The notes: generated by a model not told the origin, from the sequence alone. Counted from the whole stretch's first letter, positions 21,541 through 52,502 are shown. The stretch is DNA of 63,942 nucleotides, filler included, from Psammoneis japonica (GCA_008632985.1; 3 parts of 3 records of this genome joined end to end with filler, not necessarily neighbours in it), one strand, 5' to 3'. Numbers and translations: made by a program.

Positions 21541-21819
21541 CTAACAACAACACCTAAATGTTTTGAAACAATTATGACCGGCAATTGATCATCGAAATTC
21601 GGCACTGGCAAAATGACCGTTGACATCAACTTTGAATTTTCAATCAGGTTGTAGTGCGGCAGATATTTATGCCCACTTATTGAGTCCCGTTACGGTCATT
21701 TTTAAATGCGCAAGTCATCGAGTCATTGCAACGGTTGTCCCGGTCACTTTTTGGAGACCATCGCTGAGACACATAAAATTGAAAGAAGTCGAGAATTTCA
21801 GCCGTTGCAATCCTTGACC

Positions 21820-22863
21820 ATGACATGCCGGCAATCGTTCAGCGGCAGGCTGCTGCTTGCTCTCGCTTCCTTCGCGGTCTTTGTCGTCCCCGTTTTCGCC
21901 ATGAACAAGGCTGAGTTGATCGACGCGATTGCGAGTGATTCGGGTCTCAGCAAGGCAGATGCCAAGCGCGCTCTTGACGGTTTCATTGTCGCGACTCAGG
22001 GAGCGCTGAAAAAGGGAGACAGAGTGGCACTAGTTGGCTTTGGCTCCTTTTCAATTTCCAAACGAGCGGCCAGAACCGGACGCAACCCGCAGACAGGCAA
22101 GGAAATCAAGATTGCTGCCAAGAATGTCGTAAGGTTCAAGGCCGGTTCCGAACTTGCTGGTAAAGTAAACAGAGCTCTAAATGAAGAGGTTGCCAAGAGG
22201 GCTGTCACGGGTGAGAACAAGTACACCGAGGTTACAGAAGTTGTTTCTCAAGTGAATCCAGAAGTGACACCAGAAGAAGATGGCGTCTGCAGCCACGGTT
22301 GGGGCACGGTTCTCGCCGAGCAGGGCATTCGCATCTCTGCGAGCCTTCGATTCCTTCCGGCGTTTGCCAAGGTAATTGTAAGGGCTATCAAATCAGGCGA
22401 GGATGTCGACATTGCGAATTTTGGTGTTTTCGGAGCTTTACAAGAGGGCGATTCTTTGTCCACATCCTTTGAGGCGTATCCCGAGTTTGCTGTCCCAGTC
22501 TTGCGCGGCATCAACGAACAATATTTCAATCTCATGAGGCTCGAGCTAAAGGTAATATCACACGGTGACCACAGCATTTCTGATTTGACGTCTTGTGTAC
22601 TTCAAATGGCTGTGCTTTCGAAAGAATACGGCGACGAATTGATGCTCGAGAGAATTGCGAAGATTCAAAAAGAAGTCATGGCGGACAAGGACGGCCTTGT
22701 CGAGTTTTATAGAAAGTGTCGGGAGCCGGCAGTTGATAGAAAAGTTCGCAGGGAATGTAAAAATGGTGCTGCAGGTACGAGAGTACGAAAAGCAATGCAG
22801 GAGTTGAAGAACTTGTCACAAGACATTCGAAAGGAAGTTCAAAACAAAAAGAACAACGGTTGA
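21820..22863 (+). CDS. hup: Signal peptide + HU (DNABII) + degenerate HU + Hc1 histone-H1-like fusion protein, 347 aa
   Basis: 21820-21900 hydrophobic leader ending VFA; 21901-22170 [11 protein letters not shown]...[12 protein letters not shown]...[25 protein letters not shown]; second motif [17 protein letters not shown]-terminal [31 protein letters not shown]. Confidence 0.92.
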
Positions 22864-23988: not shown

Positions 23989-26279
23989 CTATTGCTGTTC
24001 CCATGTAAACATGACGGTCCTTCCCTTCAAATTCACGTCACCCGTGTCGTACGTCATTTGTTTCACACTGCCCCAGTCGGTTCCATCCCAGATACAAAAG
24101 CTACCACCCCTGCTGTTGTCCTGGATGGAAAGCATGACGCTTTGGTTAGACGGAGACGCAACAAGACTCATGGAATTGGGAGAATCGCCAAGGTCAGGAC
24201 CGTAGTATTCCCGGGACCACTGATTATTTGACCAAATTCTGTACCGCACCCTGGTGCTACCATCTACTCGATAGGTTGCGAGAGCTTTGCCCGGAAGTCC
24301 GTAAAAGTCCACCGCCACGGCATCAAAGTCAATCTTAATGGACGATGTTGGAGACGCAATTTCTCTGGAATTCCATGACGATCTTCCGTCCCAGATAGCC
24401 AACCACAAGGCATGTTGATTGCTTGTGGTGACTCCAAGGGCTATTCGGTTTGATGTTGCATCCACGCCCAGTGTAAATTGCTTTGCAATACTGTACACGC
24501 CACCTGGAGGCCCAAGGGAATGCTCTCTACTCCACTGGTACCCATCAAAAAGACGGTATAGCACGTCTTGTGTCTTTTTCCCGTATACAACCATGGCTCG
24601 GCCACTCTGTTGCTCATAGGCCACATAAATTGCTTTCATGCTTGCACTTGCATAGTTTCCAAGAACAAATCCATCATCCCATTCATTACCATCCCACACT
24701 ATGCAAAAGTCCGAGTTCTTAAAAGAAGCTCCAGCGAGAATCATCTCATTGGACGATGGATGAGACGCTAAGTACAATCGGTTGTTCGTTCCACTCTTGA
24801 CGGGTGACTCAAGTCGCTTTTCTAAACTCCAATAGTTTCCATTCCAAACGCGATAGTAAATTGCGTCTTCTCCTCCCTTGTTCCACACCAACATTGCATT
24901 CCCACTTTGAGATTCGTAGGCAATGTCAAACCCGTGTCGAAAAGTATTCATTGCATTGGAGTCAAGCGGTGAAAAAGAAATGTCATTCCAGCTGCCATCC
25001 GAGTACATTTGAGCAGTGACTTGGAGATTTTCATTGACTCCCACCACAATTGCTTCATCTCTTGTTGTCGAGAAAGCGCCTCGAATAATAACCCATCTTC
25101 CATAGGTGTTCTTCATGCTATCTACTTTGTCAAACTTGTTTCCGTCCCATAAGCTGTATCCGGGAGGGGAATCGTCACCGTTTACAAAAATCGCAATACC
25201 CCTTTCAGCCTTGCATTTATTACATGCCAAAGGGCAAGCTTCTTCCCCTGAAACCACATTTCCAGATTTTCCTTGCCCATAAAACGAGGAGCAGAAATAA
25301 CCCACGTTCCACTCCCTTAAATCGTCACAGTCGATCCGCGTCCCTTTAGATGACATATACGCCCAACTCAAGTCATCTCTACACAGCAATCCATTTTGCA
25401 CGTTAAATGCCGAAACAGCTCGATCAAACGTGGGGTAGGCTGTGAGAGGAAATGTTGTCGGTGACGGAGTGGGGTTTTTGGTGGGTTGTTTTGTCGGACT
25501 GAGAGTTGGGGAGTTGGACGGAGGCCTTGTGGGCACTTGGGTTAGAGAGATCGTTTGCGACGCGGTTGGCAGTTTGGTGGGTGATAACGTTGGTTGTTTT
25601 GTCGGACTGAGAGTTGGGGAGTTGGACGGAGGCCTTGTGGGCATATGGGTTGGAGAGGCCGTTGGCGACATGGTTGGCAGTTCGGTGGGTGATGATGTTG
25701 ACTGTATTGTCGGAGTGAGAGTTGGATAGTTGGATGGAGGCATTGTGGGCACTTGGGTTGGAGATGCCGTTGGCGACATGCTTGGCAGTTCAGTAGGAAG
25801 AGGCGTAGGAGCCGCAAGCATTGGGAGAGGGGTGTCTGGAAGAAATGCATCTGGATCGCATAAACCGCAGGTGACTGGACAGGCTTGAGAGCCTCTCGTT
25901 GGCTGTCCCCTTGCATCGAAACCCATAAGCTTGCACCTCTGTGATTTTTTGTCCTTGAGGTATCGGCAGGTCTTGTCGATTCCCTTCTTTGTTGTAAAAA
26001 CCCAATCTTTATCGTCAATACAAGGCTCAGATGAAGGTCGGGTCATTGTTTTATCTTGAACCGTTGGCAATCTAGACGGAGCAATAGATGTTGGGACTGG
26101 AACGTCATCCGTGGCCGTTGGAGGCCCAAAGATGGTACTTTCCGAACGCGCAAAGGTACCACCGGTCTTTTCGAGCTTTCCATCATAGTACAATTGGTAG
26201 GAGCCCGCCCCATAAGTACAACACATTCCATCACTTTCTAAGTCTCGAATTGTAAATGTGTATGTATCTTGTGGCAAGC
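23989..26279 (-). CDS. Extracellular multidomain protein, 5' end lost in the gap: DGMCC module, two ShK-like Cys modules, Pro/Thr repeats, C-terminal WDG/WNG-repeat domain
   Basis: 762-aa open frame; YTFTIRD..SDGMCC.YG.GSY; ACPVTCGLC and ACPLACNKC; PTxSPT repeats with 108-bp periodicity at ~25480-25790; repeated AYE..SG.AM.V...YR.W.G..WS. Confidence 0.85.
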
Positions 26280-26380
26280 NNNNNNNNNNNNNNNNNNNNN
26301 NNNNNNNNNNNNNNNNNNNNNNNTTAATTAATTAANNNNNNNNNNNNNNNNNNNNNNNNNNNNNNNNNNNNNNNNNNNNT
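26280..26380. other. Assembly gap with artificial TTAATTAATTAA all-frame-stop linker
   Basis: N run with the 12-mer at 26324-26335; same construct at 52643-52742. Confidence 0.98.
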
Positions 26381-30554: not shown

Positions 30555-32064
30555 TAATTGCATCTTTATGCTGGACGACTGAATCCAATCACGTTCAGAG
30601 TCTTCGCAAAGTTGTAGTTTTGATGGCCCTACAAAAGTTGCAAAACGCCCTGCGTTTCCATGTTGTGGTCTTTGTACGGTATGTCTGCCCCAGAAGCATT
30701 CGCCTCTGCTCTCTCTGTAGACACCACACCGCAATTCCTGGCTGGTGGCTGGTGATTGGCACTGGCATTGCATCTCCTCTGTGTCGCTGGGCATGGACTC
30801 GCACAAACAAACGACTTGGTCCTCATGCTTGTGCACCGTCTTTTGTCTCATGGATCTCTCACAAAATGCAGTGGAGCATCATCGTCTCATGATTTTTAGC
30901 AGAGAGTGTCTGTGGTGTTGGAAGAGGTTGGTCTGGGGAAATGTGTGGCGGGTGGCGGATGATGGTGTGTGGCGCGTTGATGATGGTTGACCGACTGCGG
31001 ACGCACTGTGCAGACCGGGTAGACCAAAGACACTCCGGAAGAACAATTTTGGAGTGATGAGAGGCCGATTAGCCTGTTGACAGCTGGTGCGGTTGGCGTC
31101 ATCGATGGAAGCTTTGCTTCTCAGAACTGACAAGGAAGTTTGCACAACATGGAAGTGGATGATGCGACATCACTGAACACACCTCAAAAAAACGACAGGG
31201 CCCACAGGTCCTTCCCAGCTGCCGCTCTCTTTTCATCATGCCCACAACAACCAGAGCCCCTGTCCAATTGGCAATGAAGGCTCGTCATTGGATCCATGGA
31301 AGGGTTGGAATGTGGCGCCACAAGTGCGACGACATAAAGTTGCTGCTGTTGTTGGCCTGTTTTTTTTTTTTTAAGTCTCCTCTGCATTTCACGTTGGCAC
31401 AACAACCCACAGCAAAGCAGCCTCGTCACATTTTCTGTTCTAATGAGAAAGCACGGGAGCCAACTTTCTTCATCCAGTTCACTGGAAACTGCGCATCTGC
31501 TTTTGCCTCAGGCTCGGCCGTCACGCCATTCAGCGTCTGCATGTGTTGACAGAAATTCATGGTCGGAGTGCACTGTGAGGCAGAGGTTGGGATTGCAGCA
31601 ATCCTGCCACACAACAGAAGGCGGGACATGCCATGCAAGAGCTGCTGCACATTGAGAGAAAAGCAGTCCTCATGAGGACACTTTTTGCAATGCTCACTCT
31701 CAACAGATGTGCGCTGATTTTTCAATCCACTCGACATCTTGTGAAGCACCACCAATCCACAAATCCCGTTCTTGACAAAACAAACAATGAAAGTGAATCT
31801 CGGTCCACAGCTGTCCTTGGTGGGTGCTGGCAGCTGTGCCGCCCGCATCTGCAAGACAGCACAGCAGCTTTCAAGCTTTCTCCAACAATCGTCAGAATGC
31901 ATGGCCCGGAACAGTTCTTCTTGATGCAGGGCACTGCTGTTGTCAAGAACAGCTGCATCTTGAGGGACACACTCTTTGCCGGACAGTTCTCAGAAGCAGG
32001 CTCTGCTGCAGCACTTGGCAGGCAAAACAATCAGAGGCAGAGACTGACATTGGATTTGTCCATG

Positions 32065-32443
32065 TGCACTGTGCTCGAAGAACGAGTGCAAACGAAAGTA
32101 GAGTGAAGTTCAAAAAGTGAAAATCATGAGAATTGTTTCTGCGCAATCATTTTGGGTTTCTCCGAACGGGTTCTCAACAGCCCAAACCTTTTGCACTGCT
32201 CCTGCAGACAAAAGGCCTTTCGGAGAACATGATCGTGACGACAGATTGTCCGGATGCGATTGACATTGACACATGAGATGTCAACATCATCGTACGATCG
32301 CATTTGCGATTCTCGACATCCAATCACTTCTGTGTGACTGATCTGCACTTCGTACGAACCCACGATTGACGTGCGATTGAAATGTGCTTTTATTTAACAC
32401 ATGGACACACACACACAACACGCACATGACAACGCATGTTGCA
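32065..32443 (-). repeat. 3' LTR of gypsy
   Basis: Direct repeat of 36862-37240. Confidence 0.95.
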
Positions 32444-32469
32444 TTCGCCTCCCCAATTGCACATCAGAG

Positions 32470-35400
32470 TCAGTCGTTAAACGGCATTGTTCGATGAACA
32501 TTGACAGTGTCAATGACGTTGCCGCGTTTGATCTGCGCTGTGCCATTGGTGTGTGCCATTGTCATTGCACACGGTCCAACACAGGGCTGTTCTAATTTTT
32601 GCGAGTCTTTCTCAAGTGGCATCTTTTCTCCTGCTCTGTGCGTGTGAGGAGCACGTCGAGCATTCTCTCGAGCGTCATTTTTATTTGTGATTTCTTGTTT
32701 TCGCTGCTGGATTAATTTCCAGTCCGCGACATGTTGGACGTCAAATGTCATGTCTCTGTTGAAGACCAGTTGTCCTGGTGCAGCTTGCGTGGTGGCATGA
32801 TGCGCAGAACGTGCCGCAAACGCTGCTGCTGACAGCACTCCAGCGAAAGGATCCTCAGCATCTAGAGGTGTGTGTTGCAAATCAAATGTGCGGAGCATGT
32901 TCCCCAGCACTTGATGCACGCGTTCAACAATTGCGTTTGCTTGTGGATTTCGTGCAGTCACAGGCTTGACTCCAGTGCCACAACCATCTTGCACCATTTC
33001 TCTAAATTGGTGTCCGATGAACTCACTTCCACGGTCACATGCAATTGACGATGGCCAAGGACATCTGCTCAGCCATGTTCGTTCCAGCAGTCCAGCTGCA
33101 GTCATGGACTCCTCATTTGGGATTTCCACAACTTCAAACCATCCGGTTGCTGGATCGATCACAGTCAAACATTTCAGGACTGGGGGTTTTTTCTTTCCCT
33201 TACGACGTATTTTGTATGGCCCAACAAGGTCCACACACAGTCGTTCCCATGGTGCGGATTCTGCGCACTTAGGAGGTAAATGTCCATATTTCTTGTGTTT
33301 CTTTTTGAATTTTTGGCACGTCTCACATCTCGACACGTATTTTCGTATGTCTTCACGTAAGGTGGACCACCATGGGTGTTGTGAGATTGTTTCTTCTGTT
33401 CGATTTATGCCAGGGTGAAGAAGGTGCGTATGATGCCAATCTATCACTGCCTTTTGTAACGTCCTCGGGACGACAATTTTATCCTTATGACATATGAGCA
33501 ACCGGTCTCGCTCGCCTCCACGAAAAGTCTTCGTATGAAACGTCTTATTTGACAATTGGGAGAGAATGTCTTTATCCCGTTTTTGTTCATAATCAAGAAC
33601 TTTGTAATTTAACGGAAAGACATTGTCGTAGGATTTTGGTAGGACCTTTTCAGCTAGCTCTTCTGTGCTGAGGGTTTCCATAGGTTCTATTTTCTTTATA
33701 GTAAGTCGGCTAATCGCGTCTGCGACAATATTTGCCTTGCCCTCAAGGTATATTATTTTGGGACTGTATTCTTCTATTATTAGACGCCAACGCATGACTC
33801 TGTCCGTTGTGAAATTTTTGTGTGTGAGATTTTTGTGATCCGTATATATATTTATCTGTTGGCCAAACAGTATATTTCGGAACTCTTTTAACGTCTCCAC
33901 TATGGACAATAGCTCTTTTTCCGTTGTAGTATAACGCGTCTGCGCTCCATTCAGCTTGCGGCTGTAGAAGGCAATTGGTCGGTTTTTCTGAGTAATAACC
34001 GCCCCCAATTGAGAATTACTAGCATCGGTATATATCTCAAAGGGTATATTAAAATTCGGGTATGATAATAGCATGTCTTTGGAGATGATGCGCTTCATGT
34101 TTTCGAAGGCTTTTTGTTCTGTTTCGGTCCATTGCCACTTTACTTGGGTAGAAGTGAGTTTGGCTAAAGGAGCTAAAACATGAGATCGTCGAGGCCACAT
34201 GTCTCGATAGCAGTTGATCATGCCGATAAAGCGTCGCAATTCCTTGCGAGTTTTAGGAGTTGCGATCGCGCGAATCGCTTCCACTTTTTTTGGAATCGGG
34301 CTGATGCCCTTGCGGGTGACATGAAAGCCTGGGTAGTCTACTTCGGGTTTAGCGAAAAAGGACTTCTCGGCGTTGACCTTCAATCCGGCTTGTTCTAGGC
34401 GTAAGAACACCGTTTCAAGCTTCTTGAGGTGGTCTTGAAAATCGCTTTTTGCAAGACACAACACATCGTCAACACAAGTTCTGACGAACTCCAGACCTGC
34501 CATGAGCTCACTCATGTGCTCTTGGAAAATATCTGGAGCTCCACAGATCCCCATCGGGAGTCCACAGCACTCACATTTGCCCCAAGGCATGACGATCGTG
34601 CACAGGCGACGTGCACGCGGCGTCAATTCGACATGACAGCATCCCATGTTTAAATCTAGGGACGTTGCATGCATGAAGCCTTCAAGCTTCTGTAGCATGT
34701 CCTGAATGTTGGGCAGAGGAAACGGAGCACGAATTAACCTCTCATTCAGCTCACGAAAGTCGGACAAGAACCGAACTCTGCCATTTTTCTTGGGTTGAAC
34801 AAAGGTTGGAGCCGCCCATTCAGAACAATTTGTTTTTCTTGAGACTTTCAACTTGCACAGTCTTTCAACCTCCTTACGAGCAGTCGCCTCCAAGGCTTGT
34901 GGTGCGGGAAATGGTTTGGCATGGTGCGGACTCACGCCCGATTTCAACTTTGGATCCACCGGTTTCCCGGTCCATTTGCCTGGAGAACCATCGAAAAGGT
35001 TTTCAAATCTTTTTAAGAGGAAGTTCAGCTGCTTCTGCTCTTCAGGGGTTAGATGAGTGGCTGCTGCGGTCACATCATTGAGGTTTGCAGCATGACAGTC
35101 TGAGTCAAGGATCCGATTGACCCTGTCATTGAGACTGATCACTGCACGAGATTCCTCAATGTGATCGGCAATCAACTTAAAAACATCGGCATCGAAGAGT
35201 GCACCAACATTCTTCATGGGAGCAATTGCATCTTCCCATTTAATCTCTTCATTCGAGAAGTCCAATGTTGTCCCAAGACTTGACATTGAGTCGCGTCCCA
35301 TGATCACATCATGACGACTCGAAGAAGAAGGGGAGTTGTCAACACATGCCGTTGTTTCAATCATCTCATGTTTGTCAAATTCGGGTGAGGAGAATTGGAT

Positions 35401-35574
35401 CTTACATCGACTGTCAGTCGTGAAGAGCCCTCCTTTGGTTTCCCAGAGTTTGGTGGCGGATGCTTTTGTTCTGAGTTTCCGCGCGAATTTGCGCAAAATT
35501 GTGGTTGACAATGTTCCGCTGTCGAGGAGAACGCGCAGAGGCTCATTTTTCGCCTCACCCAATGAAGCATTCAC
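32470..35574 (-). CDS. Gypsy pol (protease, RT, RNaseH, integrase); open but RT YxDD reads CVDD
   Basis: LLDSG; SDFRELN; LDLNMGCCH; CVDD; YTDAS; TDHKNL; H-H-C-C zinc finger; VDLVGP; CDRGSEF; PQANAIVER. Confidence 0.95.
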   Translation of the reverse strand: MNASLGEAKNEPLRVLLDSGTLSTTILRKFARKLRTKASATKLWETKGGLFTTDSRCKIQFSSPEFDKHEMIETTACVDNSPSSSSRHDVIMGRDSMSSLGTTLDFSNEEIKWEDAIAPMKNVGALFDADVFKLIADHIEESRAVISLNDRVNRILDSDCHAANLNDVTAAATHLTPEEQKQLNFLLKRFENLFDGSPGKWTGKPVDPKLKSGVSPHHAKPFPAPQALEATARKEVERLCKLKVSRKTNCSEWAAPTFVQPKKNGRVRFLSDFRELNERLIRAPFPLPNIQDMLQKLEGFMHATSLDLNMGCCHVELTPRARRLCTIVMPWGKCECCGLPMGICGAPDIFQEHMSELMAGLEFVRTCVDDVLCLAKSDFQDHLKKLETVFLRLEQAGLKVNAEKSFFAKPEVDYPGFHVTRKGISPIPKKVEAIRAIATPKTRKELRRFIGMINCYRDMWPRRSHVLAPLAKLTSTQVKWQWTETEQKAFENMKRIISKDMLLSYPNFNIPFEIYTDASNSQLGAVITQKNRPIAFYSRKLNGAQTRYTTTEKELLSIVETLKEFRNILFGQQINIYTDHKNLTHKNFTTDRVMRWRLIIEEYSPKIIYLEGKANIVADAISRLTIKKIEPMETLSTEELAEKVLPKSYDNVFPLNYKVLDYEQKRDKDILSQLSNKTFHTKTFRGGERDRLLICHKDKIVVPRTLQKAVIDWHHTHLLHPGINRTEETISQHPWWSTLREDIRKYVSRCETCQKFKKKHKKYGHLPPKCAESAPWERLCVDLVGPYKIRRKGKKKPPVLKCLTVIDPATGWFEVVEIPNEESMTAAGLLERTWLSRCPWPSSIACDRGSEFIGHQFREMVQDGCGTGVKPVTARNPQANAIVERVHQVLGNMLRTFDLQHTPLDAEDPFAGVLSAAAFAARSAHHATTQAAPGQLVFNRDMTFDVQHVADWKLIQQRKQEITNKNDARENARRAPHTHRAGEKMPLEKDSQKLEQPCVGPCAMTMAHTNGTAQIKRGNVIDTVNVHRTMPFND

Positions 35575-35670
35575 ACAGGCGACGACTGCTGGACTAGCAT
35601 GAATTGCTTTGGCCCTTTTTCTGGGCTTCCCAATGTCCAGCAGAGCGTGAGACTCCTCTTGCGGTGCAAG

Positions 35671-36888
35671 TCATTCCTCAGAATCACTGCGCGTCATTTT
35701 TTCAAACTGACAATTTTCCTCGTCAAGGGTGTCAGAATCACAATCTTTGCTCTTGTGTTTTTTGTCATTGTTCGAAGAACTCGCTTTGAGCATTTTTTGA
35801 ACTGCTTGGATCACCATGGCATTCAACTCTTCTTTGCGAGCGGCGTTGTCGTTGTCGCGACGAGACCACGTGCGATTGCCATTTGAACGGCGCTGTTTTG
35901 GGTCGGGTTCACAGTTCCCACGGCGTTCTTTCGCAAGTCTTTTGATCGACCAGCACTTGTCCGTGTCACGAGTGGATTTCTCGCATGAAATGCACCACTT
36001 CTCGGACTGAGATTTTTCGGTGCCATGTTGGTGACCATTTTTGGAACCACGTTGGGAACCACTCTTGGCTTTTGATGCAGTGCCGCCACTGCCATCAGCC
36101 TTGGCATGAATGCCATCAAACATGTCTTCTGCGACCTCTGGGCGCTCCAAAAACTCAACCAGCTCGTCATGGGCATGTTTCAAAATTTCGAAACCCTGGA
36201 CGGTCGACTGACGCTGCCACTTTCGAGGTGCAAGGTTGAAGAGGATGTCCTTGAGCTCGTCATCCTCGATCTTCTGTTCCTTCCCAAAGGGAGGATAGAA
36301 CTTGAGGTCTTCGTTGACTTCCTGGACCCAAGCAGCAATTTCGCGCACTTTCATGGACTCCGGCTTCTTGAGATCACGACGCAAATGACGTTTCTGCACC
36401 GAAAGTGCGTTCTTGGGAAACACATGCCTCGTGAGATGTTGGAGGCATTTCTTGAAGCTTCCTTCCGCAGATTCGTCTTCAAGGTTCGCTGCCGCATTCT
36501 CGAAAGCACGCAGGGCGTCTCCTTGGAGTGACATGCGCATGAGACGAAACTCATCAGATTGCTTCCTGACATTCTGGCCCACCAGAAGTTGATCGTAGCT
36601 CTTGAGAAATTCGATGAACTTGGGGACACCTTGTTTCTTGCAGCACTCAACATTGATGGTGCAGGTGCGGCTGTCCTTCTTCTCGGGATGAAAACGTTGC
36701 TCCATCTTGAGGTGCTGGCTCGGTTTGAGGCTCTTCGGCTCGGAGTTCGATTCCAGCGGTTGAGGGACGATTTTCTCCTGCCTCAACGAAGTTTTGGCGT
36801 TGGTTGCATGAGGTGAAAGCTTCATCTTGAACTCATTGCCTTCTGTGGTGTGTATGCACAATGCACTGTGCTCGAAGAACGAGTGCAA
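35671..36888 (-). CDS. Gypsy gag
   Basis: 405-aa ORF between 5' LTR and pol; QKRHLRRDLKKP; degenerate knuckle WCISCEKSTRDTDKCW. Confidence 0.85.
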   Translation of the reverse strand: MHSFFEHSALCIHTTEGNEFKMKLSPHATNAKTSLRQEKIVPQPLESNSEPKSLKPSQHLKMEQRFHPEKKDSRTCTINVECCKKQGVPKFIEFLKSYDQLLVGQNVRKQSDEFRLMRMSLQGDALRAFENAAANLEDESAEGSFKKCLQHLTRHVFPKNALSVQKRHLRRDLKKPESMKVREIAAWVQEVNEDLKFYPPFGKEQKIEDDELKDILFNLAPRKWQRQSTVQGFEILKHAHDELVEFLERPEVAEDMFDGIHAKADGSGGTASKAKSGSQRGSKNGHQHGTEKSQSEKWCISCEKSTRDTDKCWSIKRLAKERRGNCEPDPKQRRSNGNRTWSRRDNDNAARKEELNAMVIQAVQKMLKASSSNNDKKHKSKDCDSDTLDEENCQFEKMTRSDSEE

Positions 36889-37240
36889 ACAAAAGCAGAA
36901 TGAAGTTCAAAAAGTGAAAATTGTGAGAATCATTTCTGCGCAATCATTTTGGGTTTCTCCGAACGGGTTCTCAACAGCCCAAACCTTTTGCACTGCTCCC
37001 ACAGACAAAAGGCCTTTCGGAGAATGTGATCGTGACAACAGATTGTCCGGATACGATTGACATTGACACGTGAGATGTCAACATCATCATACGATCGCAT
37101 TTGCGATTCTCGACATCCAATCACTTCTGTGTGACTGATCTGTGCTTCGTACGAACCCACGATTGACGTACGATTGAAACACACTTTTATTCAATGCACA
37201 GATGCACATGTGCAATGCGCACATGACAACGCACATTGCA
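36862..37240 (-). repeat. 5' LTR of gypsy
   Basis: Direct repeat of 32065-32443. Confidence 0.95.
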
Positions 37241-38163
37241 CATGTTGAACATTTTCTGCAGCACTTGGATCTGTTCTCACTTCCCGCATCTCTTCCCGGC
37301 AGCATCAAATCCTTGGACGTGTCAAAACACTTTGGCGCATCCTGCAGACCATCCAACGCTTGGCAACTTGCCTCTTGGAAACTGCCACACTGGTCTCAAC
37401 ACTCTTCTCATGCTGCCACTTGTGCAGTGTCACAGACCAAGTTAGTCCCTTGCAACAATCTCCGTCTCCACTTCGAGTTGATCAAAGTGGGCCCACAACC
37501 ACTTCAACGAAGAGCGATCACGACACGCCCCAGAGCAAGAGCTCTCAGGCACATCAATTTTGCACATTGGTGGAGTCAGAGCAACAGCACAGGTGGCTGT
37601 CACAACTGCTTTGCGACTTTGTCTGTCCAGATCAACGACTGCAACTGCTCATTTCTTGTCCCCATTTCGAGCATGTTCCTGTTGACACCCGCGAAAACCT
37701 GACACCTGACACATCACACACGCACACTCTCTCTTCATTTCATCGCCTCGGCAGAATGGTTCTTGCATTCATGGCGCTTTTCACAGGTGTGCTTTTAATC
37801 ATTGTTGCATCCAAGACCACAAAAGGTCACTGTCGTGCCCCATGTGCAACACACAGCCACTGACAAGAGTTGGTGTATCACGGCGACGTGTTGCAGTCTT
37901 AAATGTCACAAAGGGCGTGACAAAAATGACCTTTTGTCTGCATGCATGCTGCACATGATCATCCTTGACGACTGGAGTGTGTCAGCATGCCGCAAGGATG
38001 CAAGCTCCGCAGCGAGGTGCAGATGCACTGGCGCTCGCGCAAACAAGCGATCCGCATGACTCAGTGTGAGACGGTGGGTTTGGGGCGAGAGCGAGATCTG
38101 CTCGATGTTTTCTTCGTCATGGGTTCGCAGTGAAATACATTCAGCACTGGTGACAATGATCAT

Positions 38164-40604: not shown

Positions 40605-40782
40605 AAGAACACGGAAGATACGGTCGCTGAAGTGGGGTAACGGTCAGTACAATGTGTAGAATTCAACGGAGAAATACTACGGAATACAACATGGGTTGTA
40701 TTCCCGGGATAATGTACCGGTAGTAGGGCCCTACGGTAGTACGCACGACTCCTCCTCTAGTACCTGACCTGCTGCAAAAAAC

Positions 40783-42054
40783 ATGCGGCTGCCCCACATC
40801 CACAATCCACAATCCAACCACAGCAGCGAGAAGTCTCCAAGTTGCACCCTGTCTACAGCATCCCATCTCAAAGATCACGCAATGGAGGGGCAGAAGCAGA
40901 AGGTTCAGCGGCTCATCTCGAACCTTCATGATCGCAATGTGACGGGTTCGTTTGTGGGTAACAGCCGCATCCAAGGCCTGATTGCAAAGCACGAGCTAAG
41001 CTACTTCAAATTCGAGAAGCCCAGACGAAAAGGTAAAAAGCCACATAGAGTTCAAAGTTATGATGCAAGTGAAACATGGATAAATTCGACAGACAGCAGG
41101 AGTGGCGCAGAGTACATTGGAGACAAGGATGTTTTGCCTTTCTTGTTGAAGTGCATAACGGATTCAGAAAAAGCCGGCAACATCGAAGTGAAAGATGTCG
41201 ATCCGAACAACGGTCAATCCAACAGTAAATCCTCCTTCTGTGCTGTTTTGTCCTTCCTTCTCTTTGGTGCCAACAACATGGGAGCAAACAAGACGGATCT
41301 CTGCGAAATCATGACCGCGTACTGTGCCTCGGAACGGGGACAGAGGGAATGGTTCAAAGCCGCTTCGGAGCTTTTTAAGGTAAACGTTTTCGTTGTCGAA
41401 TGCCACACCAAGTCACCTCCCAACGAGGTGTCCCCACATTTCGAGAAATTGTTCCGTGAAAAGAAAAACGACGTGAACACACAGCGGTATTTATGGAGCC
41501 GGGAGAATGGCAGGGCGTGGAGACTTCGATCGCAGTCTCACCTGCACAAATCCGATTCAAACGGTGCAACACCTTGGCTGTACCTGGGGGTGGACAATAC
41601 AGAGCATTACTTTGCTCTCTGCTCCAGCGACCCAGAGCTGTCCCTGCCCCCCGCACCAGCACTCGGCACTCAGTATCGTGGTTGCTACCGGGCCTCCACC
41701 GACCACTCCTCCACTCTGGCTCCTGGAGCTGGCGATGCTGGCGGACTTTCCTCTGGAGCACTGGCTCTCCCGATGGCTGGCGATGGAGCAAGCGGCGCAT
41801 TTGCTCCAAAGGCGGTCGGGAACAATGCCGTAGAAGCGGGGGGAAGGGAAAAGGAAGAACCGCCAACGTCTGAACCGAAGACCTCTAGCAGTGCGCCGGC
41901 TCCGGCAGCTTCGTTGCAAGGAAGAACGGCTCCGGCCGATGCCTCTGCTGGAACTGGGCGAGCAGAAAGGAAAAGAGCACTGTCACCATGTTTGGGTGAA
42001 AGCCCATCGCCGCTACCTGCTGCTACAAAAGCGAAACCGTTTCCTCCCGAGTGA
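40783..42054 (+). CDS. Hypothetical protein, possible OTU-like fold plus low-complexity Ala/Gly/Pro tail
   Basis: 423-aa ORF with normal composition; AASELFKVNVFVV and LYLG...EHYFAL resemble OTU motifs, but no DGxC catalytic motif. Confidence 0.5.
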   Translation: MRLPHIHNPQSNHSSEKSPSCTLSTASHLKDHAMEGQKQKVQRLISNLHDRNVTGSFVGNSRIQGLIAKHELSYFKFEKPRRKGKKPHRVQSYDASETWINSTDSRSGAEYIGDKDVLPFLLKCITDSEKAGNIEVKDVDPNNGQSNSKSSFCAVLSFLLFGANNMGANKTDLCEIMTAYCASERGQREWFKAASELFKVNVFVVECHTKSPPNEVSPHFEKLFREKKNDVNTQRYLWSRENGRAWRLRSQSHLHKSDSNGATPWLYLGVDNTEHYFALCSSDPELSLPPAPALGTQYRGCYRASTDHSSTLAPGAGDAGGLSSGALALPMAGDGASGAFAPKAVGNNAVEAGGREKEEPPTSEPKTSSSAPAPAASLQGRTAPADASAGTGRAERKRALSPCLGESPSPLPAATKAKPFPPE

Positions 42055-43355: not shown

Positions 43356-44886
43356 TTATCTCGCACCTTTTTGCTTCGTCCGTTCCTGAGTAAAATCTAC
43401 ATTCTTGCTGATATAATTAGGGACCGAAAACTCGACCGCATTCTTCTCCACGGCTCGAGCAATTGCCATCAGCACAGCATTCCGATTGTCCATGTATTCA
43501 TCGCCATAGGGCTTGAGGTCAAAGTTGACATTCACCAACACTTCTACACGATCTTCTTTGAAATCGTTCATGTGAACACGAAATGGACGGCGACCATCGG
43601 TGATCAATTTGGGGCACGAGATCCGGATTTCTTCCTTGATTGATTCGACGAGATCAGGAATTTTGTCAAGATCGTCATAATGGAACCCCAACACTTGCTT
43701 CACTTGGCAATTGTCAGTTCGAGCTAGATTTTGCGATCGTTGAGCGTTTAGCTGCGTATTGGGAATTCTAATTACAATTCCGTCTGTACCTGCGACAGAT
43801 GGACGAAGGTGAAGTGTAAGAACCTGTACATAGAACATAACTCTTACAAAAAGGTCTGCTGGTACAGACTACGTAGTCCGCAAAAATTGACGTACCTTTA
43901 ATGTGTGTCTCTAGTGAGCCTATCAGTTGCACACTTCCAGTGGTTCCGTCTCCAAGCCGGATCAAATCCCCTTCCTTAAATTTGCCTGAGATACGAAGCG
44001 CGAAAGCATTCACAATCGCACTCGCCAAATCCTTAGAGGCCAACGAAAACACCAATCCTGCTATGCCTCCCGCGGCAAGGACTGAGGTAACGCCCTTTCC
44101 GAGTCCCCACTGGCAGATGTCTTCAAAGAACAAAAATGTACAAACGGCAATGAGGCCATCCAGCACGCGAGAAAGAATTTCGGTCTTTTCATCCAATTTA
44201 CGCTTTCTCAACATGAACTGCTTGAAGTTACGAATCCTCCAGGCAACCCAAGCTGTGTGTGCCGATTTGGCAAACATGCCGGGATGGTCGGGGTGTGTGG
44301 CAAATCCCAACGTTGTCAACGCCAACGAAACCATGTCAAAGGCATAGATGATCCCCGCTACCTTGGCTAGCTGAGAAATCGTGGTCGCACCTCGAAAGAG
44401 AAGCGTCTTTTGGTAATCTTCGTCGTTTTCTTTGTCCTTTAGGCGCTGGAGTAGATAGCGTTTGGCGAGTGGTTGTGGAAGCCAGGCAATCACCCCCAAC
44501 AGAGCAACATCACTAAGATCAAAGGCGTTGGCCAGAGCTTGCCAAGTGGGACGTAGCTTGGAGGGAAGGAGCGTGAACTTCTGGATAATGGATCCCAAAC
44601 GTCCGACTGCGGCGGGTGCAAGCACAGTGCCACGGCTGCTGTTACTCGTTCCAGCCGCAGCAGCCGCTTTCGCGGGAAGGTTCATCTGGGTGGCAGGTCG
44701 ATGACGAGTCAACGTGTCGGCCACCACCACTCCTCTCTCGCCTTGACGAAGTGAGCGGATGCCAAAATGAGGGAGCACAAGAAGGGAGGAATCGACCGGC
44801 GTCACCCACGCAGCAGCCAAGCTAGCAACAGTGAACAAAAGCAACAGCAACAATGGTGAGTTTGGAGGACAAAGACTCGTCCTCAT
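43356..44886 (-). CDS. mscS: MscS-family small-conductance mechanosensitive channel, probably plastid-targeted; exons 44886-43896 and 43789-43356
   Basis: GGIAGLVFSLASKD...F.EGD.I.LG.GT.G.V..IG.LET...IPN..L; 106-bp GT..AG intron 43895-43790 joins the two ORFs in frame; leader LLLLLLFTVASLAAA-WVTP fits signal peptide plus aromatic +1 residue. Confidence 0.92.
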
Positions 44887-45394
44887 CCTGACAGGCATTT
44901 GTGTTTGCCTTTCTGCTGCCTGCTTTTTGCGGGTCAAGAAACAAATGATGTCTCTGCAGTGCAGTGATGTGTGACGGCGCTTGATGGTTGCAGTGCGGTC
45001 GCTGTTGGCTGTGGCGCTTCTTCGGGGCTACCTTGCACTCTCCCAGGTGATCCCGGCCAGAGATGTCACAAACCAGCATGTGGCAGCCAATTGAAAATGT
45101 GAGGAAAGAACCGCAACATCAATCCCTGAGAAGCGAAGACAATGCATGGACTGTGGAAGTGCAGTCATGAGTCAAAACACCGCGGAACAGGATCCATGCT
45201 CCGAGATCTGTGCGGCACCGCGACAATCTTCATCGCCGGTGCTGGCTAGGGCCCACCGGCATGCTGGCACTGCAGATGTCTTTTTGGGTCTCGGATGTCT
45301 GTCTTTCGCCCGCCCGACGCTCCTGGCTCTGATCATGTCATGACTTTCGGTTTCAGCAGTTGTCGGGTCGTTGAAAAAGTCAGTGGGGCAGCTG

Positions 45395-45666
45395 TGACAG
45401 GATTTGAACAGGATTTGGATGCGCGCATTCGCGCGCTGTTTAGTTTACCGCGCACAGTTTTGTGTGCTTTAGTTCCGCGCGTTCACGCGCGATGTAGTTT
45501 GCTTTCGAGCCACAAGGCTCACAAGAATGACAACAGCAGCCCGATTGTGCCGACTCACACGTCTTTCGGCTCCTGTGACGGTCTCTGAGCGGAGACTCAT
45601 CTGCCATTTAGACAGCAGTAAGGAGTTGTTGTTTGAATTCTTGCCATTTGCCTTCATTTTCTGTCA
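45395..45666 (+). repeat. 5' LTR of copia copy 3
   Basis: 272 bp (4 bp shorter, in the GCGCGC hairpin loop). Confidence 0.97.
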
Positions 45667-45681
45667 GATTAACAGTCTTGC
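45667..45681 (+). promoter_or_regulatory. Putative primer-binding site complementary to a tRNA-Asn(GUU) anticodon arm
   Basis: GATTAACAGTCTTGC immediately after the LTR; reverse complement G-CAAGA-CT-GTT-AA-TC. Confidence 0.6.
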
Positions 45682-46606
45682 TCATTGTCAACCCATTGAG
45701 CAACCGCCATCGTCGTCGTTGATTTACCAACGACGCTATCTTTAATTCTACGTGGACCTCCGTATATATTCTACATACATCGGCAAGTCTACGCGCATTC
45801 AATACCAGGGCATCGGCAGGAAGTTAACGTCACCGTCAAGTCTCCTTACCGCTGGATATCTGGATTGATTATACTACCTTTGATCGCTGAAGACATACAT
45901 TCAACGGTCATATCCAAGTCTATCCTTGATCCTCATCCCTTGATATACCTATTCATCGGTTAACGGTCAAGAACCCTACATATTCAAGGATCTTCGTCGC
46001 TGAAGACATATATATATATACATGTCTTCACGGCCAAGAACCTGTACCCACTCTTCGGACTGCGGTTTTGCCACCACTCTACAAGCACACCGAGTCCATT
46101 GTACCTGATCTACCCCGGACTGCTGGTGCTCTACAGTTCTACTAGGTCCACGAGGACGACTGTGAGAGCAAGCAGCCGTGATTGCAGCCTGCGTTGGGGC
46201 GAGGGTGCTTTCCCGCGTTTGTTCGTTCGTCCACAGCGCCCAACGCCTGCGTCAACTGGCCAGCCTGATCGGGAAATCCAACCGACATAAAATAAGAACG
46301 GTTTGGGGGTCTTGTCCACCTCCAGTCAGCTCACCTGCAGGGGTTTGCAACCCGCTGCTCTGCTCGCAAGCAACCCAAAGCGCCGCCAGCTACGGGTTCG
46401 GACATGCCAGCACAGCTCTACGGACCGGACAGGAAGTTTGGCACTTGACAACGAACGGGACAACAAAGCCCGGCGACTTCTGATTTTAAGATAGTTCAAG
46501 ATTTCAAGTCAAGTCTGTTTCAAGTCAAGTCTGTTCTCACCCAAGTTTCGAGTCTACCTTCGCTTCCCAACCAGAATTGATTGTCCTGACACCACTTTTG
46601 TCTGCC

Positions 46607-49600
46607 ATGGTTCTCACTCGTCAGCAACAAACCGATGGTTTCGAGCACGTTGTTGGAACCGTGCTTGCCCAAGGTGCTGGGAGTCCTCTTCGTTTGGCTT
46701 TGGCCCAAGACGGCACGGACTCGCATCAGGAACTGTTCACGTTCATGCCGCCCCCAAATCGACTTGCTTGAGTGCGACAACGGCGCCAATGTGATCCCTT
46801 TGCCCCGTGGTTATAAGAACATGTTGGCAGCACTAGCCAGCCTGCACATTGTCAAAGCACACAAAGGTCTTGACGTTGCCAACGACTCCTCTTTGTTCAC
46901 GCATGACGAGTTCCTTGCCTGCCGCCTCAGCCCGGACTGCATGTCCTCTCTGTCCATCGGCAGCTCACCCCTTGCACCTCCACATGTCACCAACCCGACC
47001 AAGGCACGCGACCCGGTGCGAGACTTCAAGCGAGGCATCAAGCGTGATCCCACCGCTTTCACGGCTCTCAAATCCGACAAGCAGTGGCACACTTGGCACA
47101 CCTCACTTGTGGCACAAGCCCGTGCCCAAGACGTCGAGTGCATTCTAGACTCGTCGTACAAACTGACCAGCCCCGAAGACAAACTGCTCTTTGCTGAACA
47201 GCAAAAGCACATGTTCGCCATCTTCGAACGCATCCTTCTCACCGACAAGGGCAAGGCTCTCATTCGCGAAAATGTGGGGTCCTCTGACGCACAGACCGTC
47301 TGCCGCTCCTTGTCTGAATGCGCGCTTGCCTCCACCCGTGCATCTGTCGAGTCCTCCACCCTGCTCACGCACCTCACCACCGCACGTCTTGGTGATGGCA
47401 CTTGGAAAGGTCCGACCCACGGGTTCATCCTTCATTGGCAAGATCAGTTGCGCAAGTGCAAAGGCACTCATCCCCGCCAGCGACCACTTCTCTGAAGGAC
47501 AGAAGCGCGTCATGCTCGAGAATGCCGTGCACCCTGTCGAGGAACTCCGTGCTGTCAAGAACCAAGCTGATCAGCATCATGCGCAGAGTGGCAAGAGCCT
47601 CACGTGCGATCAACACTGTGGCTTGCTCCTCTCCACGGCAGCTCAGTGCGACAGCACGTTTCAACCCAAGACGACACCTCGAGCTCCCCGACGCGCCACA
47701 TGCGCACACGACGTCTGCTCCGAGGAACCGTCCGACAATGTGTTCTGCGACATTGACAGCGACGTTGACGTCCTTCACGCCAATGCTGCCTGCACCCGTG
47801 GTCCCAGCCTCACCGGTGTCCAATGGAGACGTCTCCCTCCCGACCACCAACGGCTCTGGGATTCGTTGCCCGATTCCTCCAAGGCGATCATCCTTGAGCA
47901 CTCTTGTCCGCCTCCCCGCAACCCACGAGCCAGTGACTGCCATGAGTCTGTTACGGCCAACCTTCACGACCAACACCTTGGGAGTGACGGTGATGTCAAC
48001 TTGTCCAACACGACTCCTGCTGACTGTGGTGACTCCGCTGCACATGTGGACGCCATTTCGGATGATCCCATCCTGGCGCACCTCACCAAGCGCAAGCCAC
48101 TGCCACCCAGTGATCTGCAACGTCTGTTGTCTCCTAACCAAGCCCCCAATGCCAGTCGACCGGGGCCATCCGCCACTTCCTCTACCCCGCCAGCTTCTGC
48201 AGATGACACAGAACTTAACGGCCGCACTTGCCGCCGCGTTGACAACCACAATGTCATTCACTCTGCCTCTGCTCATCGCTCCACATGCACTGGTGCTCTG
48301 GTCGATCGTGGGGCCAACGGCGGCATTGCTGGCGACGACGTCCGCGTCATCGCACGCACCTCTCGCCAAGTCGACGTTCAGGGCATTGACGATCATCAAT
48401 TGGTGGACATCCCCATTGTCACCGCTGGTGCCGTCATTGAGACCCAGCGTGGTCCCGTCATCGCCATCCTCCATCAGTGCGCATGCACGGGAAAGGGCAA
48501 GACCATCCATTCCTGTGGCCAGCTTGAATGGCACAAACAGGATGTCAATGATCGCTCTGTCAAGGTGCCCAACGGCTTGCAACGCATTGCCACTCCTGAT
48601 GGCTGTGTCATCCCCATTGACACCAAGGCTGGCCTGCCTTTGTGTTGCCATGCGACCTTGCACTGACGCCGAATGGGACACCCTGCCCCACATCATCCTC
48701 ACCGGTGATGACACATGGGACCCTTCCGTCCTCGATCACTCTGTCACTGACGATGACCAGTGGTGCGACGCGATCTCTGACCTGCAGGACGATCCCACTG
48801 CCAACCCATTTGACGAATGCGGCAACTGCTGTCACCGTGTCGTTGTCAACGAGACCATCTTGTCCGCTTCCTTGTCTGCCGATCACGCGTCCGCCCTCGA
48901 TGATCACCTCATTCCGAACGACGACGTGTTCTACGAGTGTCATCTGCATGCGATTGACCCCAAGGGCGATGACGTTCCACCTCCGGAGCACACTGTACAG
49001 CCCAAGGACCCCCCCTTCGAGTCTCTTCGGCCTTGCTTTGGCTTCCCACCTGCCGATGCGGTCCGTCGTACTTTTGACTGCACCACGCAGCACGCCCGCA
49101 TGCCCGCCGGTGCACACCTTCGCAAGGCCTTCAAATCACCCAACCCCGCCCTTAATGTGCACCGTCGCAACGAGCCTGTCGCCACTGACACCGTTTGTGC
49201 CGACACCCCGGCCGTCGACTCTGGTTGCACCAGCGCCCAACTGTTTGTTGGCACCGAGTCTACCGTCACTGACGTCTGCGGCACTGAGACGGACAAAGAG
49301 TTTGTCAACACACTCGAGGATCAGATCCGTGAACGTGGTGCCCCATCCAAACTCATTGGCGACCGTGCTCAAGTTGAGATCAGCAACAAAGTGCTCGGGA
49401 TCCTACGTGCCCTCTTCATCTCCAGCTGGCAAAGTGAGCCTCACCAGCAACACCAAAACTTTGCCGAGCATCGACACCAGACTGTGAAGCGCATGGCGAA
49501 CACTGTCATGGACCGCTTTGGTTCGCCCGCCCACACATGGCTGCTGGCGCTCATGTGCGTGTGCTTCATGCTCAACCACACAGCGTCCCCACGTCTCCAC

Positions 49601-52279: not shown

Positions 52280-52502
52280 TTTGCTGCGCACAGTTTTGTG
52301 TGCTTTAGTTCCGCGCGTTCACGCGCGATGCAGTTTGCTTTCGAGCCACAAGGCTCACAAGAATGACAACAGCAGCCCGATTGTGCCGACTTACACGTCT
52401 TTCGGCTCCTGTGACGGTCTCTGAGCGGAGACTCATCTGCCATTTAGACAGCAGCAAGGAGTTGTTGTTTGAATTCTTGCCATTTGCTTTCATTTTCTGT
52501 CA
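52227..52502 (+). repeat. 3' LTR of copia copy 3
   Basis: 276 bp, PPT ggggag at 52221-52226. Confidence 0.97.

Follow-up and report, generated by a model that had tools for sequence, protein, structure and literature searches.

What kind of mutation process leaves TG in one LTR and CA at the same place in the other LTR of a single retrotransposon insertion? The locus that raises this question, positions 32065-37240 of the window (the whole 63,942-nucleotide stretch of DNA that was analysed, filler included), is one Ty3/gypsy LTR retrotransposon copy on the minus strand, bordered by a 4-bp CATG target-site duplication. Our comparisons indicate that this copy was very probably hit by a TpA→TpG/CpA mutation process after its LTRs had become separate double-stranded DNA.

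Regional TpA→TpG/CpA hypermutation has been described in mutation-accumulation lines of Bigelowiella natans, where it arose de novo in culture and in some lines only (Mettrop et al., bioRxiv 10.64898/2026.01.13.699255). In that preprint, the de novo mutations of two hypermutable regions were A→G or T→C in 230 of 231 cases, every GC-biased mutation of those regions fell on TpA, TpA-depleted coding sequences were enriched in reverse-transcriptase and DDE domains, and an ADAT2 homologue was named as candidate enzyme (bioRxiv 10.64898/2026.01.13.699255). A full-text literature search for a natural TA-specific A:T→G:C chromosomal mutator found no report beyond this one 2026 preprint.

Results

Structure of the insertion

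The element belongs to a multi-copy Ty3/gypsy family, and its features are collected in Table 1. The probability that two random 4-mers from the window would match, as the CATG on both flanks does, is 0.0046. The LTRs are direct repeats, 90.2% identical, with termini TGCA...TGCA; the preliminary description regarded these termini as unusual, but they obey the canonical TG...CA rule and present no anomaly. A purine run, GGGGAGGCGAA, abuts the 3' LTR, and a tRNA-complementary primer-binding site was not recognised in this mutated sequence. The pol frame has the order protease, RT, RNase H, integrase, as for Ty3/gypsy elements. Its protease motif is LLDSG at residue 48, with no Pfam match to a protease domain, and Pfam placed RVT_1 at residues 293-451 (4.2e-16), RT_RNaseH at 540-635 (2.6e-30), Integrase_H2C2 at 734-790 (5.9e-17) and rve at 806-895 (3.6e-07; 30.8 bits, under its 32.6-bit cut-off). 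The gag-like ORF gave no Pfam match and is nearly devoid of TA. No in-frame stop interrupts the 1066 aa of pol. Since TA→TG/CA changes cannot create a new stop codon, a dead element of this kind retains full-length gag and pol frames.

Table 1. Features of the Ty3/gypsy copy and its borders, in window coordinates.
Feature	Position	Strand	Basis
Left target-site duplication, CATG	32061..32064	.	Flank sequence
3' LTR, 379 bp	32065..32443	-	LTR alignment, repeat family; element sense is minus
Putative polypurine tract adjoining 3' LTR	32444..32460	-	Reverse complement reads ...GGGGAGGCGAA; taken directly from sequence
pol ORF, 1066 aa	32470..35670	-	ORF scan and Pfam domains
TA-rich spared patch, graded edges	33200..34400	.	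TA counts, GC, conserved Tyr
RT YxDD motif, now CVDD	34465-34476	-	Motif search
Protease DSG motif in pol	35515-35529	-	Motif search
Single in-frame TGA separating gag from pol	35671..35673	-	ORF scan
gag-like ORF	35674..36825	-	Start is first Met of 411-aa stop-to-stop frame
5' LTR, 379 bp	36862..37240	-	LTR alignment
Right target-site duplication, CATG	37241..37244	.	Flank sequence

Differences between the two LTRs

The spectrum of differences between the LTRs is narrow. In a gap-free alignment 37 of 379 positions differ, all by transitions, with no transversions or indels. Fourteen adjacent TG↔CA dinucleotide swaps make up 28 of these differences, and the nine single ones comprise four CG↔CA, two TA↔TG, two TA↔CA and one outside pyrimidine-purine (YR) dinucleotides. 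Thus 36 of the 37 lie inside YR dinucleotides, as against one among 171 non-YR positions; 32 are TA-derived (the 14 swaps and four of the singles), four are at CG and one is elsewhere. When 37 differences were placed at random in 379 positions (100,000 trials), adjacent pairs averaged 3.5 and reached at most 11, compared with 16 observed. The preliminary description had reported reciprocal TG/CA states in the two LTRs of an insertion flanked by a target-site duplication, and the 14 swaps, with CATG on both sides, confirm this; the strings that it quoted at ~32380-32422 and ~37177-37219 also match the sequence as written there.

CG is intact in both LTRs at 20 sites, compared with the four CG↔CA differences, and TA is kept in both at three sites, two of them within GTACGA. 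TA sites are heterogeneous, and a single per-site rate does not fit. The raw divergence of the pair is 9.8% versus 0.6% (1/171) at non-YR positions, which bears out, for this copy, the earlier expectation that dating by LTR divergence would be inflated.

Ancestral state of the reciprocal sites

Whether TA or CG was ancestral at the reciprocal sites had been set beforehand as the test of the preliminary description, and four routes favoured TA. We compared pol at 452 columns with a conservation of 80% or more among 42 homologs, a selection of the 120 matches listed, and found 71 mismatches, among them ten Y→C and six Y→H. Outside the TA-rich patch described below, conserved Tyr was kept in none of 15 columns (nine Cys, five His, one Phe) and conserved Arg in 30 of 33. 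Of the conserved-column mismatches there, 57 in all, a single TA→TG/CA step explains 31 and a single CG→TG/CA step explains one. In contigs from other gypsy copies, inspection by eye showed TA at two of the reciprocal LTR sites, with no CG at any, and the variant places were transitions in 102 of 105 cases; these contigs, possibly drawn from the sample that was assembled, do not count as independent of the assembly. As judged from these comparisons, the polarity is clear, and the ancestral state at the reciprocal gypsy LTR sites is TA, not CG. Some A→G or T→C changes outside TA also occur where this copy departs from the family majority, for example at 32972 and 32975.

A TA-rich patch and the composition of the window

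Mutation within the element is patchy. GC content is 0.406 in the TA-rich patch and 0.496 in the remaining internal sequence. The patch has 58 TA within 33450-34200, and it equals the gypsy family majority. It keeps conserved Tyr in nine of 11 columns, contains no in-frame stops and shows 14 mismatches in 189 conserved columns, as against 57 in 263 in the TA-poor parts. A uniform process does not explain a 1.2-kb unmutated patch in an otherwise saturated copy; the process may have been regionally targeted, an unmutated copy may have donated the patch by gene conversion, or the patch may be a chimera produced in assembly or polishing.

The same regional pattern extends across the window, where affected tracts hold 0-15 TA per kb and neighbouring tracts 30-57. 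The flanks of the element are TA-poor too (31-32 kb and 37-39 kb hold 5-9 TA per kb), and 40 of 63 1-kb windows fall under a Rho_TpA of 0.43, the 5% genome cut-off given in the B. natans preprint (bioRxiv 10.64898/2026.01.13.699255). The DNA would thus be either an unusual stretch of such a genome or that of a different organism. CG observed/expected is 0.8-1.2 across the gypsy element; in older stretches, such as 13-16 kb and 54-57 kb, CG has gone as well as TA (4-19 CG per kb). Where DNA is free of TA, long ORFs run in each of the six frames.

The mutated A follows T, and C is favoured as the next base 91:41, or about 2-fold (summed by hand). The extended motif can be written as RTAY susceptible and YTAR resistant, with a 3' C favoured. 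TACG sites nevertheless occur among the retained TAs of the gypsy LTRs.

Copia copies in the same window

The window also contains four copies of a copia family unrelated to the gypsy element, and these were compared site by site. At the 21 sites where TG, CA and a third state occur, the third state was TA at 19 and CG at two; CG→TG/CA singletons were found at 22, 19, 13 and 9 sites. The LTR pair of copia copy A, which is younger and less saturated, has 13 differences, of which nine are TA versus TG/CA, one is a swap and one is CG↔CA. In this copy conserved Tyr is now Cys or His in 33 of 42 columns, and conserved Arg is His, Trp or Cys in four of 55.

The TG:CA ratios by copy were 40:40, 24:25, 46:31 and 39:31. 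A runs test on direction gave z from -1.87 to +1.66, without strand runs, and pairs of copies ranged from 19:24 to 32:28 for same versus opposite direction. Direction is thus about 50:50 on both strands and independent between copies. Such equal targeting of the strands, independent from copy to copy, fits a DNA-level process acting on LTR duplexes that were already separate.

Discussion

A process that would account for the gypsy copy is A:T→G:C transition at TA, a palindromic step whose two strands would be equally likely to be hit. It would have struck this copy once the two LTRs were separate double-stranded DNA, most probably in the integrated element, and susceptible TA sites would have approached saturation while ordinary substitutions barely accumulated. 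The same ancestral TA could then be lost in opposite directions, giving TG in one LTR and CA in the other. The likeliest chemistry would be enzymatic deamination of DNA adenine at T-A (A→inosine→G), and its role would plausibly be defence against foreign or mobile DNA. The preliminary description had gone further on timing, placing near-saturating mutation in chromosomal DNA. The divergence of the LTRs upholds that claim as far as reverse transcription: the LTR argument proves mutation after that step and not strictly after integration, since unintegrated double-stranded DNA also fits. Its rejection of RNA editing stands, because both Y→C and Y→H occur and the LTRs differ at 37 sites.

Decay of methylated CpG, in which the reciprocal sites would be former CG whose 5-methylcytosine was deaminated on either strand, is formally compatible with TG/CA reciprocity, and it can point to the four CG↔CA differences, to the older stretches depleted of CG as well as TA, and to the CG→TG/CA singletons of the copia copies. 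We give it barely any probability: CG persists in both gypsy LTRs at 20 sites and at near-expected frequency (0.8-1.2) across the element, Arg was kept in 30 of 33 columns while all 15 Tyr were lost outside the patch, copia third states favour TA 19 to two, and one CG step accounts for one of 57 pol mismatches against 31 by a TA step. The Tyr/Arg contrast and the copia third states largely refute CpG decay as the main cause; with four of the 37 gypsy LTR differences, it contributes as a minor, slower process. Reading the polarity the other way round, with CA/TG ancestral, TA the product of C→T, and the TA-rich patch the mutated part, would recall fungal RIP, which is described as turning CpA/TpG of repeated DNA into TA and leaving AT-rich patches. 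Here, however, the TA-rich part holds the intact conserved motifs (Tyr 9/11, 14 mismatches in 189 columns versus 57 in 263 outside, no in-frame stops) and it is in the TA-poor part that YxDD reads CVDD; sites that read TG in some copies and CA in others are moreover out of reach of C→T. Tyr loss, copia third states and conservation of the patch refute this polarity, to which we assign practically no chance.

Could the copy have arrived already mutated, through hyperediting of its RNA by an ADAR-like enzyme or of its cDNA or unintegrated double-stranded DNA by a deaminase? ADAR-type enzymes do prefer a 5' U (also noted in bioRxiv 10.64898/2026.01.13.699255), and unintegrated double-stranded cDNA carries two LTRs open to independent hits. 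RNA editing, though, would be one-stranded and copied into both LTRs, in conflict with the ten Y→C, six Y→H and 37 LTR differences; the host flanks on both sides are TA-poor as well, the LTR pair of copia A looks like the same process at an unsaturated stage, and the same spectrum was measured in situ in chromosomal DNA (bioRxiv 10.64898/2026.01.13.699255). Editing before integration is thus very unlikely. That the LTRs stem from different insertions, through recombination of differently mutated copies, or that the pattern arose artificially in assembly or sequencing, has an exceedingly slim chance. The family is large (3746 matching contigs, with a summed depth of 4,800-17,700 on the element versus 65-89 on the flanks), only short contigs cover the interior of this copy, and a patch equal to the family majority could be a polishing chimera. 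Yet the CATG duplications match, contigs span both flank-LTR junctions at the depth of a single copy, with 0 and 1 differences, and 770 of the 3746 contigs reach 99% similarity or more. A second family, protein-level comparisons and four separate copies all show this spectrum, and the TA-loss signature would persist even in a recombinant. The same TpA spectrum might instead reflect other chemistry, in which a modified thymine (5-hydroxymethyluracil, 5hmU, or a base-J-like base) mispairs with G and yields T→C with no adenine deaminase. TA being palindromic, T→C and A→G are indistinguishable from sequence, and in the dinoflagellate C. cohnii 5hmU is reported to take the place of thymine with a preference for TA and TC, with enrichment on transposable elements (PMC11572971). 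Base-resolution mapping in Breviolum minutum gave no sequence motif for 5hmU (PMC11071213); TC is no hotspot here, where non-YR differences are one of 37, and the window contains no spliced-leader relic or diagnostic gene pointing to a dinoflagellate host. We consider this chemistry unlikely.

TpA→TpG/CpA mutation of DNA is the reading to set beside known systems. As in B. natans, changes are almost only A→G/T→C at TpA on both strands (with a minority of non-TA changes here) and regional, with TpA-depleted, CpA- and TpG-enriched tracts beside DNA of normal TA content. The preprint covers integrated giant-virus and virophage regions, and in its text the words LTR, retrotransposon, gypsy and copia have 0 occurrences each (bioRxiv 10.64898/2026.01.13.699255); unlike that study, ours concerns targeted LTR retrotransposons, an LTR-pair and copy comparison, and depletion near saturation. 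The match of the gypsy and copia process to B. natans TpA hypermutation is supported, as an identification by signature; the window yielded no marker gene, rRNA or named close homolog that would tie it to that species.

The process resembles ascomycete RIP in that both hypermutate DNA by transitions in a specific dinucleotide, disable repeats or mobile elements, and distort dinucleotide content as well as LTR-based dating. RIP, however, is C→T, mostly CpA→TpA, and gains TA, lowers GC and makes stops, whereas here TA is lost, GC rises and no stop is possible; duplication as a trigger, too, is without support here. The clustered, deaminase-type transitions on retroelements also resemble APOBEC3/ADAR hyperediting, which acts on single-stranded cDNA or RNA before integration, is strand-specific and is copied to both LTRs, whereas here both strands are affected and the LTRs have diverged. 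ADAR prefers a 5' U. The natural target of tRNA deaminases, A34, always follows U33, and the substrate loop of E. coli TadA is U-A-C-G. Like TadA/ADAT2-type deaminases and TadA-derived base editors, the process described here would take A after T(U) with C favoured next; unlike the U-A-C-G context, TACG is among the TAs retained, the preference is only about 2-fold, and no deaminase gene was noticed in the window.

We can imagine, though the odds seem to us against it, a dedicated genome defence that erases retrotransposon TpA through a DNA adenine deaminase of TadA/ADAT2 ancestry. The T-A-C preference would echo the U33-A34-C35 anticodon loop, regional bursts might stop inside an element and leave a 1.2-kb patch, and proteins would be killed (all conserved Tyr lost) without stop codons. 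If this is true, and if the source is other than Bigelowiella, it would be the first sign of such a defence system in a second lineage, reshaping most of a region.

The TpA process, as recognised by its signature, is not new; the extension lies in its acting on LTR retrotransposons. These data provide independent, sequence-only evidence that it acts on LTR retrotransposons of two superfamilies, that it acts after LTR formation, and that it can near saturation with background divergence below 1%. LTR-divergence dating is inflated ~17-fold at the gypsy copy, dead elements with long open frames will get called as genes, and richness in TG/CA should not be taken for CpG decay. Copies that are only partly mutated, together with the spared patch, offer ready substrates for the search for the enzyme and also supply the extended motif given above.

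Results

The stretch at 32065-37240 is a complete LTR retrotransposon of the Ty3/gypsy type, on the minus strand (hereafter the gypsy element). Between its LTRs, a single reading frame runs through a gag-like ORF of 411 aa, one TGA and a pol ORF of 1066 aa; pol carries a DSG protease motif and the Pfam domains RVT_1, RT_RNaseH, Integrase_H2C2 and rve (slightly below cut-off), in the gypsy order. A purine run adjoins the 3' LTR. The LTRs start with TG and finish with CA, which is the rule, and we therefore see no anomaly in the termini that the preliminary description had called unusual. No second copy of this family was found within the window, and two pattern scans of public metagenome contigs, for the LTR and for an unmutated part of pol, found no copies.

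Features of the window, with positions, strands and supporting observations
Feature	Position	Strand	Observation
Gypsy LTRs (direct repeats), 379 bp each	32065-32443 and 36862-37240	minus	gap-free alignment
CATG	both flanks of the gypsy element		chance match of two random window 4-mers, 0.0046
Four Ty1/copia copies (A-D), one family	2521-12129, 45394-52502, 57621-62863	copy D minus	
HU-domain frame, 385 aa stop-to-stop	21706-22860	plus	Pfam HU, 6.3e-37, bacterial-type
Ankyrin-repeat ORF, 348 aa	38167-39210	minus	Pfam Ank_2, 5.1e-36; in TA-poor gypsy flank
Tandem repeat, 3 copies of a 108-bp unit	25481-25804		100%, 89% and 76% identity to first copy
N runs, two of identical layout	26280-26379 and 52643-52742		44 N, 12 bases, 44 N; resemble masking more than ordinary assembly gaps
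Long ORFs, 419-581 aa	766-2508, 17203-18618, 40768-42051, 43771-45027		in tracts of normal or intermediate TA; no Pfam match

Between the two gypsy LTRs, 37 of 379 positions differ, exclusively by transitions and with no indels. As the preliminary description had reported, they carry reciprocal states: 28 of the differences form 14 adjacent swaps, in which one LTR reads TG and its partner CA. The remaining nine comprise four CG/CA, two TA/TG and two TA/CA differences, and one G/A outside pyrimidine-purine (YR) steps, the sole difference among 171 such positions. Since adjacent pairs numbered 16, compared to a maximum of 11 when 37 differences were placed at random (100,000 trials), and positions outside YR steps hardly differ, the pattern is real and far past chance.

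A swap between TG and CA requires an intermediate, and therefore either CG or TA. We looked for a CG ancestor in relatives, which would contradict the TA origin proposed in the preliminary description, and found that conserved Tyr and Arg residues of pol, third states among copia copies, the LTRs of copia copy A and other gypsy copies all favour TA. All four lines of sequence evidence point to TA as the ancestral state at the swaps.

For pol, we aligned 42 homologs picked from the best 120 (50-57% identity) and scored the 452 columns in which 80% or more of them have one residue in common. Among 71 mismatches, Y to C was the most frequent (10), followed by Y to H (6), while R to H occurred once; in several K to E, N to D, I to V and T to A changes a T directly precedes the codon, so that T|A becomes T|G. 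TA density is about 1 per 100 bp across most of the gypsy element and 8-12 per 100 bp in a stretch of pol at ~33200-34400 with graded edges and a GC content of 0.41 (hereafter the patch). Within the patch, 9 of 11 conserved Tyr columns are still Tyr, compared to none of 15 beyond it, where 9 have become Cys, 5 His and 1 Phe. The reverse transcriptase now has CVDD for its catalytic YxDD, and 30 of 33 conserved Arg columns are kept. One TA to TG or CA step accounts for 31 of the 57 mismatches outside the patch, and one CG to TG or CA step for a single mismatch.

Of the four copia copies, A is complete, B is 5'-truncated and adjoins the 3' LTR of A in tandem, and C has a 1.3-kb insertion at ~45941-47255. 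In their DNA alignment, 21 sites have TG, CA and a third state: TA in 19 cases, CG in 2. A further 42 sites have TG and CA alone. Copy A was compared with 20 homologs, the first among P0248-P0299 to exceed 1500 aa: 33 of 42 conserved Tyr columns now read Cys or His, and just 4 of 55 conserved Arg columns H, W or C. Copies B-D behave in the same way. All copies retain long ORFs, even though each has lost 16 to 33 conserved Tyr to Cys or His. The LTR pair of copy A (277 bp) has 13 differences, including nine of TA versus CA or TG, one swap, one CG/CA and one transversion, and shows a less saturated, one-step stage of the process.

Public DNA-run contigs, which may derive from the assembly's own sample and are not independent of the assembly, matched the gypsy element in large number (n = 3746; summed depth 4,800-17,700 versus 65-89 on the flanks). 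We read this excess solely as a sign of a multi-copy family. Transitions made up 102 of the 105 variant places among these contigs. Comparing contig strings by eye, we found TA in other copies at two reciprocal LTR sites and CG at none. Where both gypsy LTRs have CA, other copies carry TG, which is the expected hidden class of sites at which both LTRs mutated in the same direction. At 37193, close to the 5' LTR end and at single-copy depth, one contig has G for A (depth 40.6 of 77.1); this site is not a TpA, and the difference could be allelic or recent.

The polarity of the process is AT to GC, and GC content in the gypsy internal region is 0.496 in mutated parts versus 0.406 in the patch. 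Both strands are equally affected in the copia copies (TG:CA of 40:40, 24:25, 46:31 and 39:31). Strand-coordinated tracts, which a processive single-strand deaminase would be expected to leave, were not seen along the copia DNA (runs-test z -1.87 to +1.66). Where two copia copies are both mutated, about half of the sites agree in direction (same versus opposite, 19:24 to 32:28), indicating that each copy mutated independently. Same-direction sites in the gypsy LTR pair, which are invisible, should accordingly be about as numerous as opposite-direction sites.

Susceptibility is context-dependent. We inferred an ancestral TA at 116 copia sites, where 276 of 441 copy-sites have mutated. RTAY was mutated at 0.69-1.0 and YTAR at 0.25-0.43, and at asymmetric sites the strand with A then C was mutated 91 times versus 41 (hand sum of the direction table). 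This T-A-C preference may echo U33-A34-C35 in the tRNA on which TadA acts. The 31 TAs surviving in saturated gypsy zones lie mostly in TTAA, CTAG, TTAT and TACG. Protection by a neighbouring CpG is at most a weak trend, with 48 of 90 copia copy-sites mutated next to CG versus 222 of 345 away from it, and TAs adjoining CG making up 8 of 31 retained in mutated gypsy zones versus 3 of 58 in the patch. CpG decay is also present and is much slower than TA loss: the gypsy LTRs share CG at 20 sites versus four CG/CA differences, and hundreds of CG are intact in copia.

Under the genetic code, TA to TG or CA changes create no stop, and the only stop codon touched is TAA, which becomes TGA. This explains how the gypsy copy stayed open over 1066 + 411 codons despite the loss of conserved Tyr, and why TA-free DNA in the window has long ORFs in all frames.

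The window is a mosaic, with Rho_TpA at or below 0.43 in 40 of 63 1-kb windows. TA content is normal at 22-31 kb and 39-46 kb, and low in the DNA that flanks the gypsy element. Three tracts (13001-16000, 20001-21000 and 54001-57000) have 0-5 TA and 4-19 CG per kb; TG and CA each occur ~100-124 times per kb (~20-24% together). These tracts resemble old DNA where YR decay has finished by both routes, and no Pfam domains were found in their ORFs. A Pfam search of 28 window ORFs matched only the HU/Hc1-like ORF, the ankyrin ORF and copia reverse transcriptase. The HU frame, in TA-normal DNA, combines a hydrophobic signal-like stretch, the HU domain and a C-terminal Hc1-like basic tail, and its nearest named database relatives are prokaryotic HU proteins. 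An Rfam search of the window gave no matches. No host lineage emerged from homologs of the HU-like ORF and the copia polyprotein, from a cluster look-up or from a protein atlas, in which taxa were mixed or lacking.

Discussion

The preliminary description had proposed that the gypsy LTRs were mutated after insertion, at the DNA level. Its observation is confirmed and its interpretation supported. Judging from the LTR sequences, the changes postdate LTR formation, an argument that excludes RNA editing and reverse-transcriptase error; taken strictly, it leaves room for unintegrated double-stranded cDNA as the substrate. Chromosomal DNA is the likelier one, because the flanks are TA-poor and mutation has been measured in situ in Bigelowiella natans (Mettrop et al., bioRxiv 10.64898/2026.01.13.699255). 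For the patch, candidate origins are regional targeting that halted partway through the element, gene conversion with an unmutated copy as donor, and a polishing chimera. Its sequence is that of the family majority, and 4 of 40 variant places listed fall inside it, three at the right edge; none of the contigs listed spans the element or the patch, and the presence of both LTR versions and the patch on a single molecule is presumed.

In a full-text literature search, the B. natans preprint was the one report of such a TpA process. According to its available text, two integrated viral regions in mutation-accumulation lines mutate ~1000-fold faster than other parts of the genome; 230 of 231 changes there are A to G or T to C, all GC-biased changes fall at TpA, giving TpG or CpA, and hypermutation is confined to some lines. 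TpA-depleted coding sequences are enriched in reverse-transcriptase and DDE domains, and the authors propose that an ADAT2-like adenosine deaminase is responsible (bioRxiv 10.64898/2026.01.13.699255). The signature in our window is the same, and the process itself is therefore not new. An alternative chemistry, mispairing of 5hmU at TpA, draws on dinoflagellate reports (PMC11572971), but is weakened by the lack of a sequence motif for 5hmU in Breviolum (PMC11071213) and because nothing points to a dinoflagellate host; a dinoflagellate spliced-leader motif had no match in the window.

The targets differ, being integrated viral regions in B. natans and LTR retrotransposons here, and the preprint's available text mentions neither LTR, retrotransposon, gypsy or copia, nor the RTAY/YTAR and A-then-C preferences. 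LTR retrotransposons, and possibly another genome, thus join a kind of hypermutation reported once, in a 2026 preprint. To that report, these loci add retrotransposons of two superfamilies as targets, the LTR-pair proof that the changes came later than LTR formation, near saturation against a background divergence of 0.6%, a context preference, the no-stop property and a spared patch within an element.
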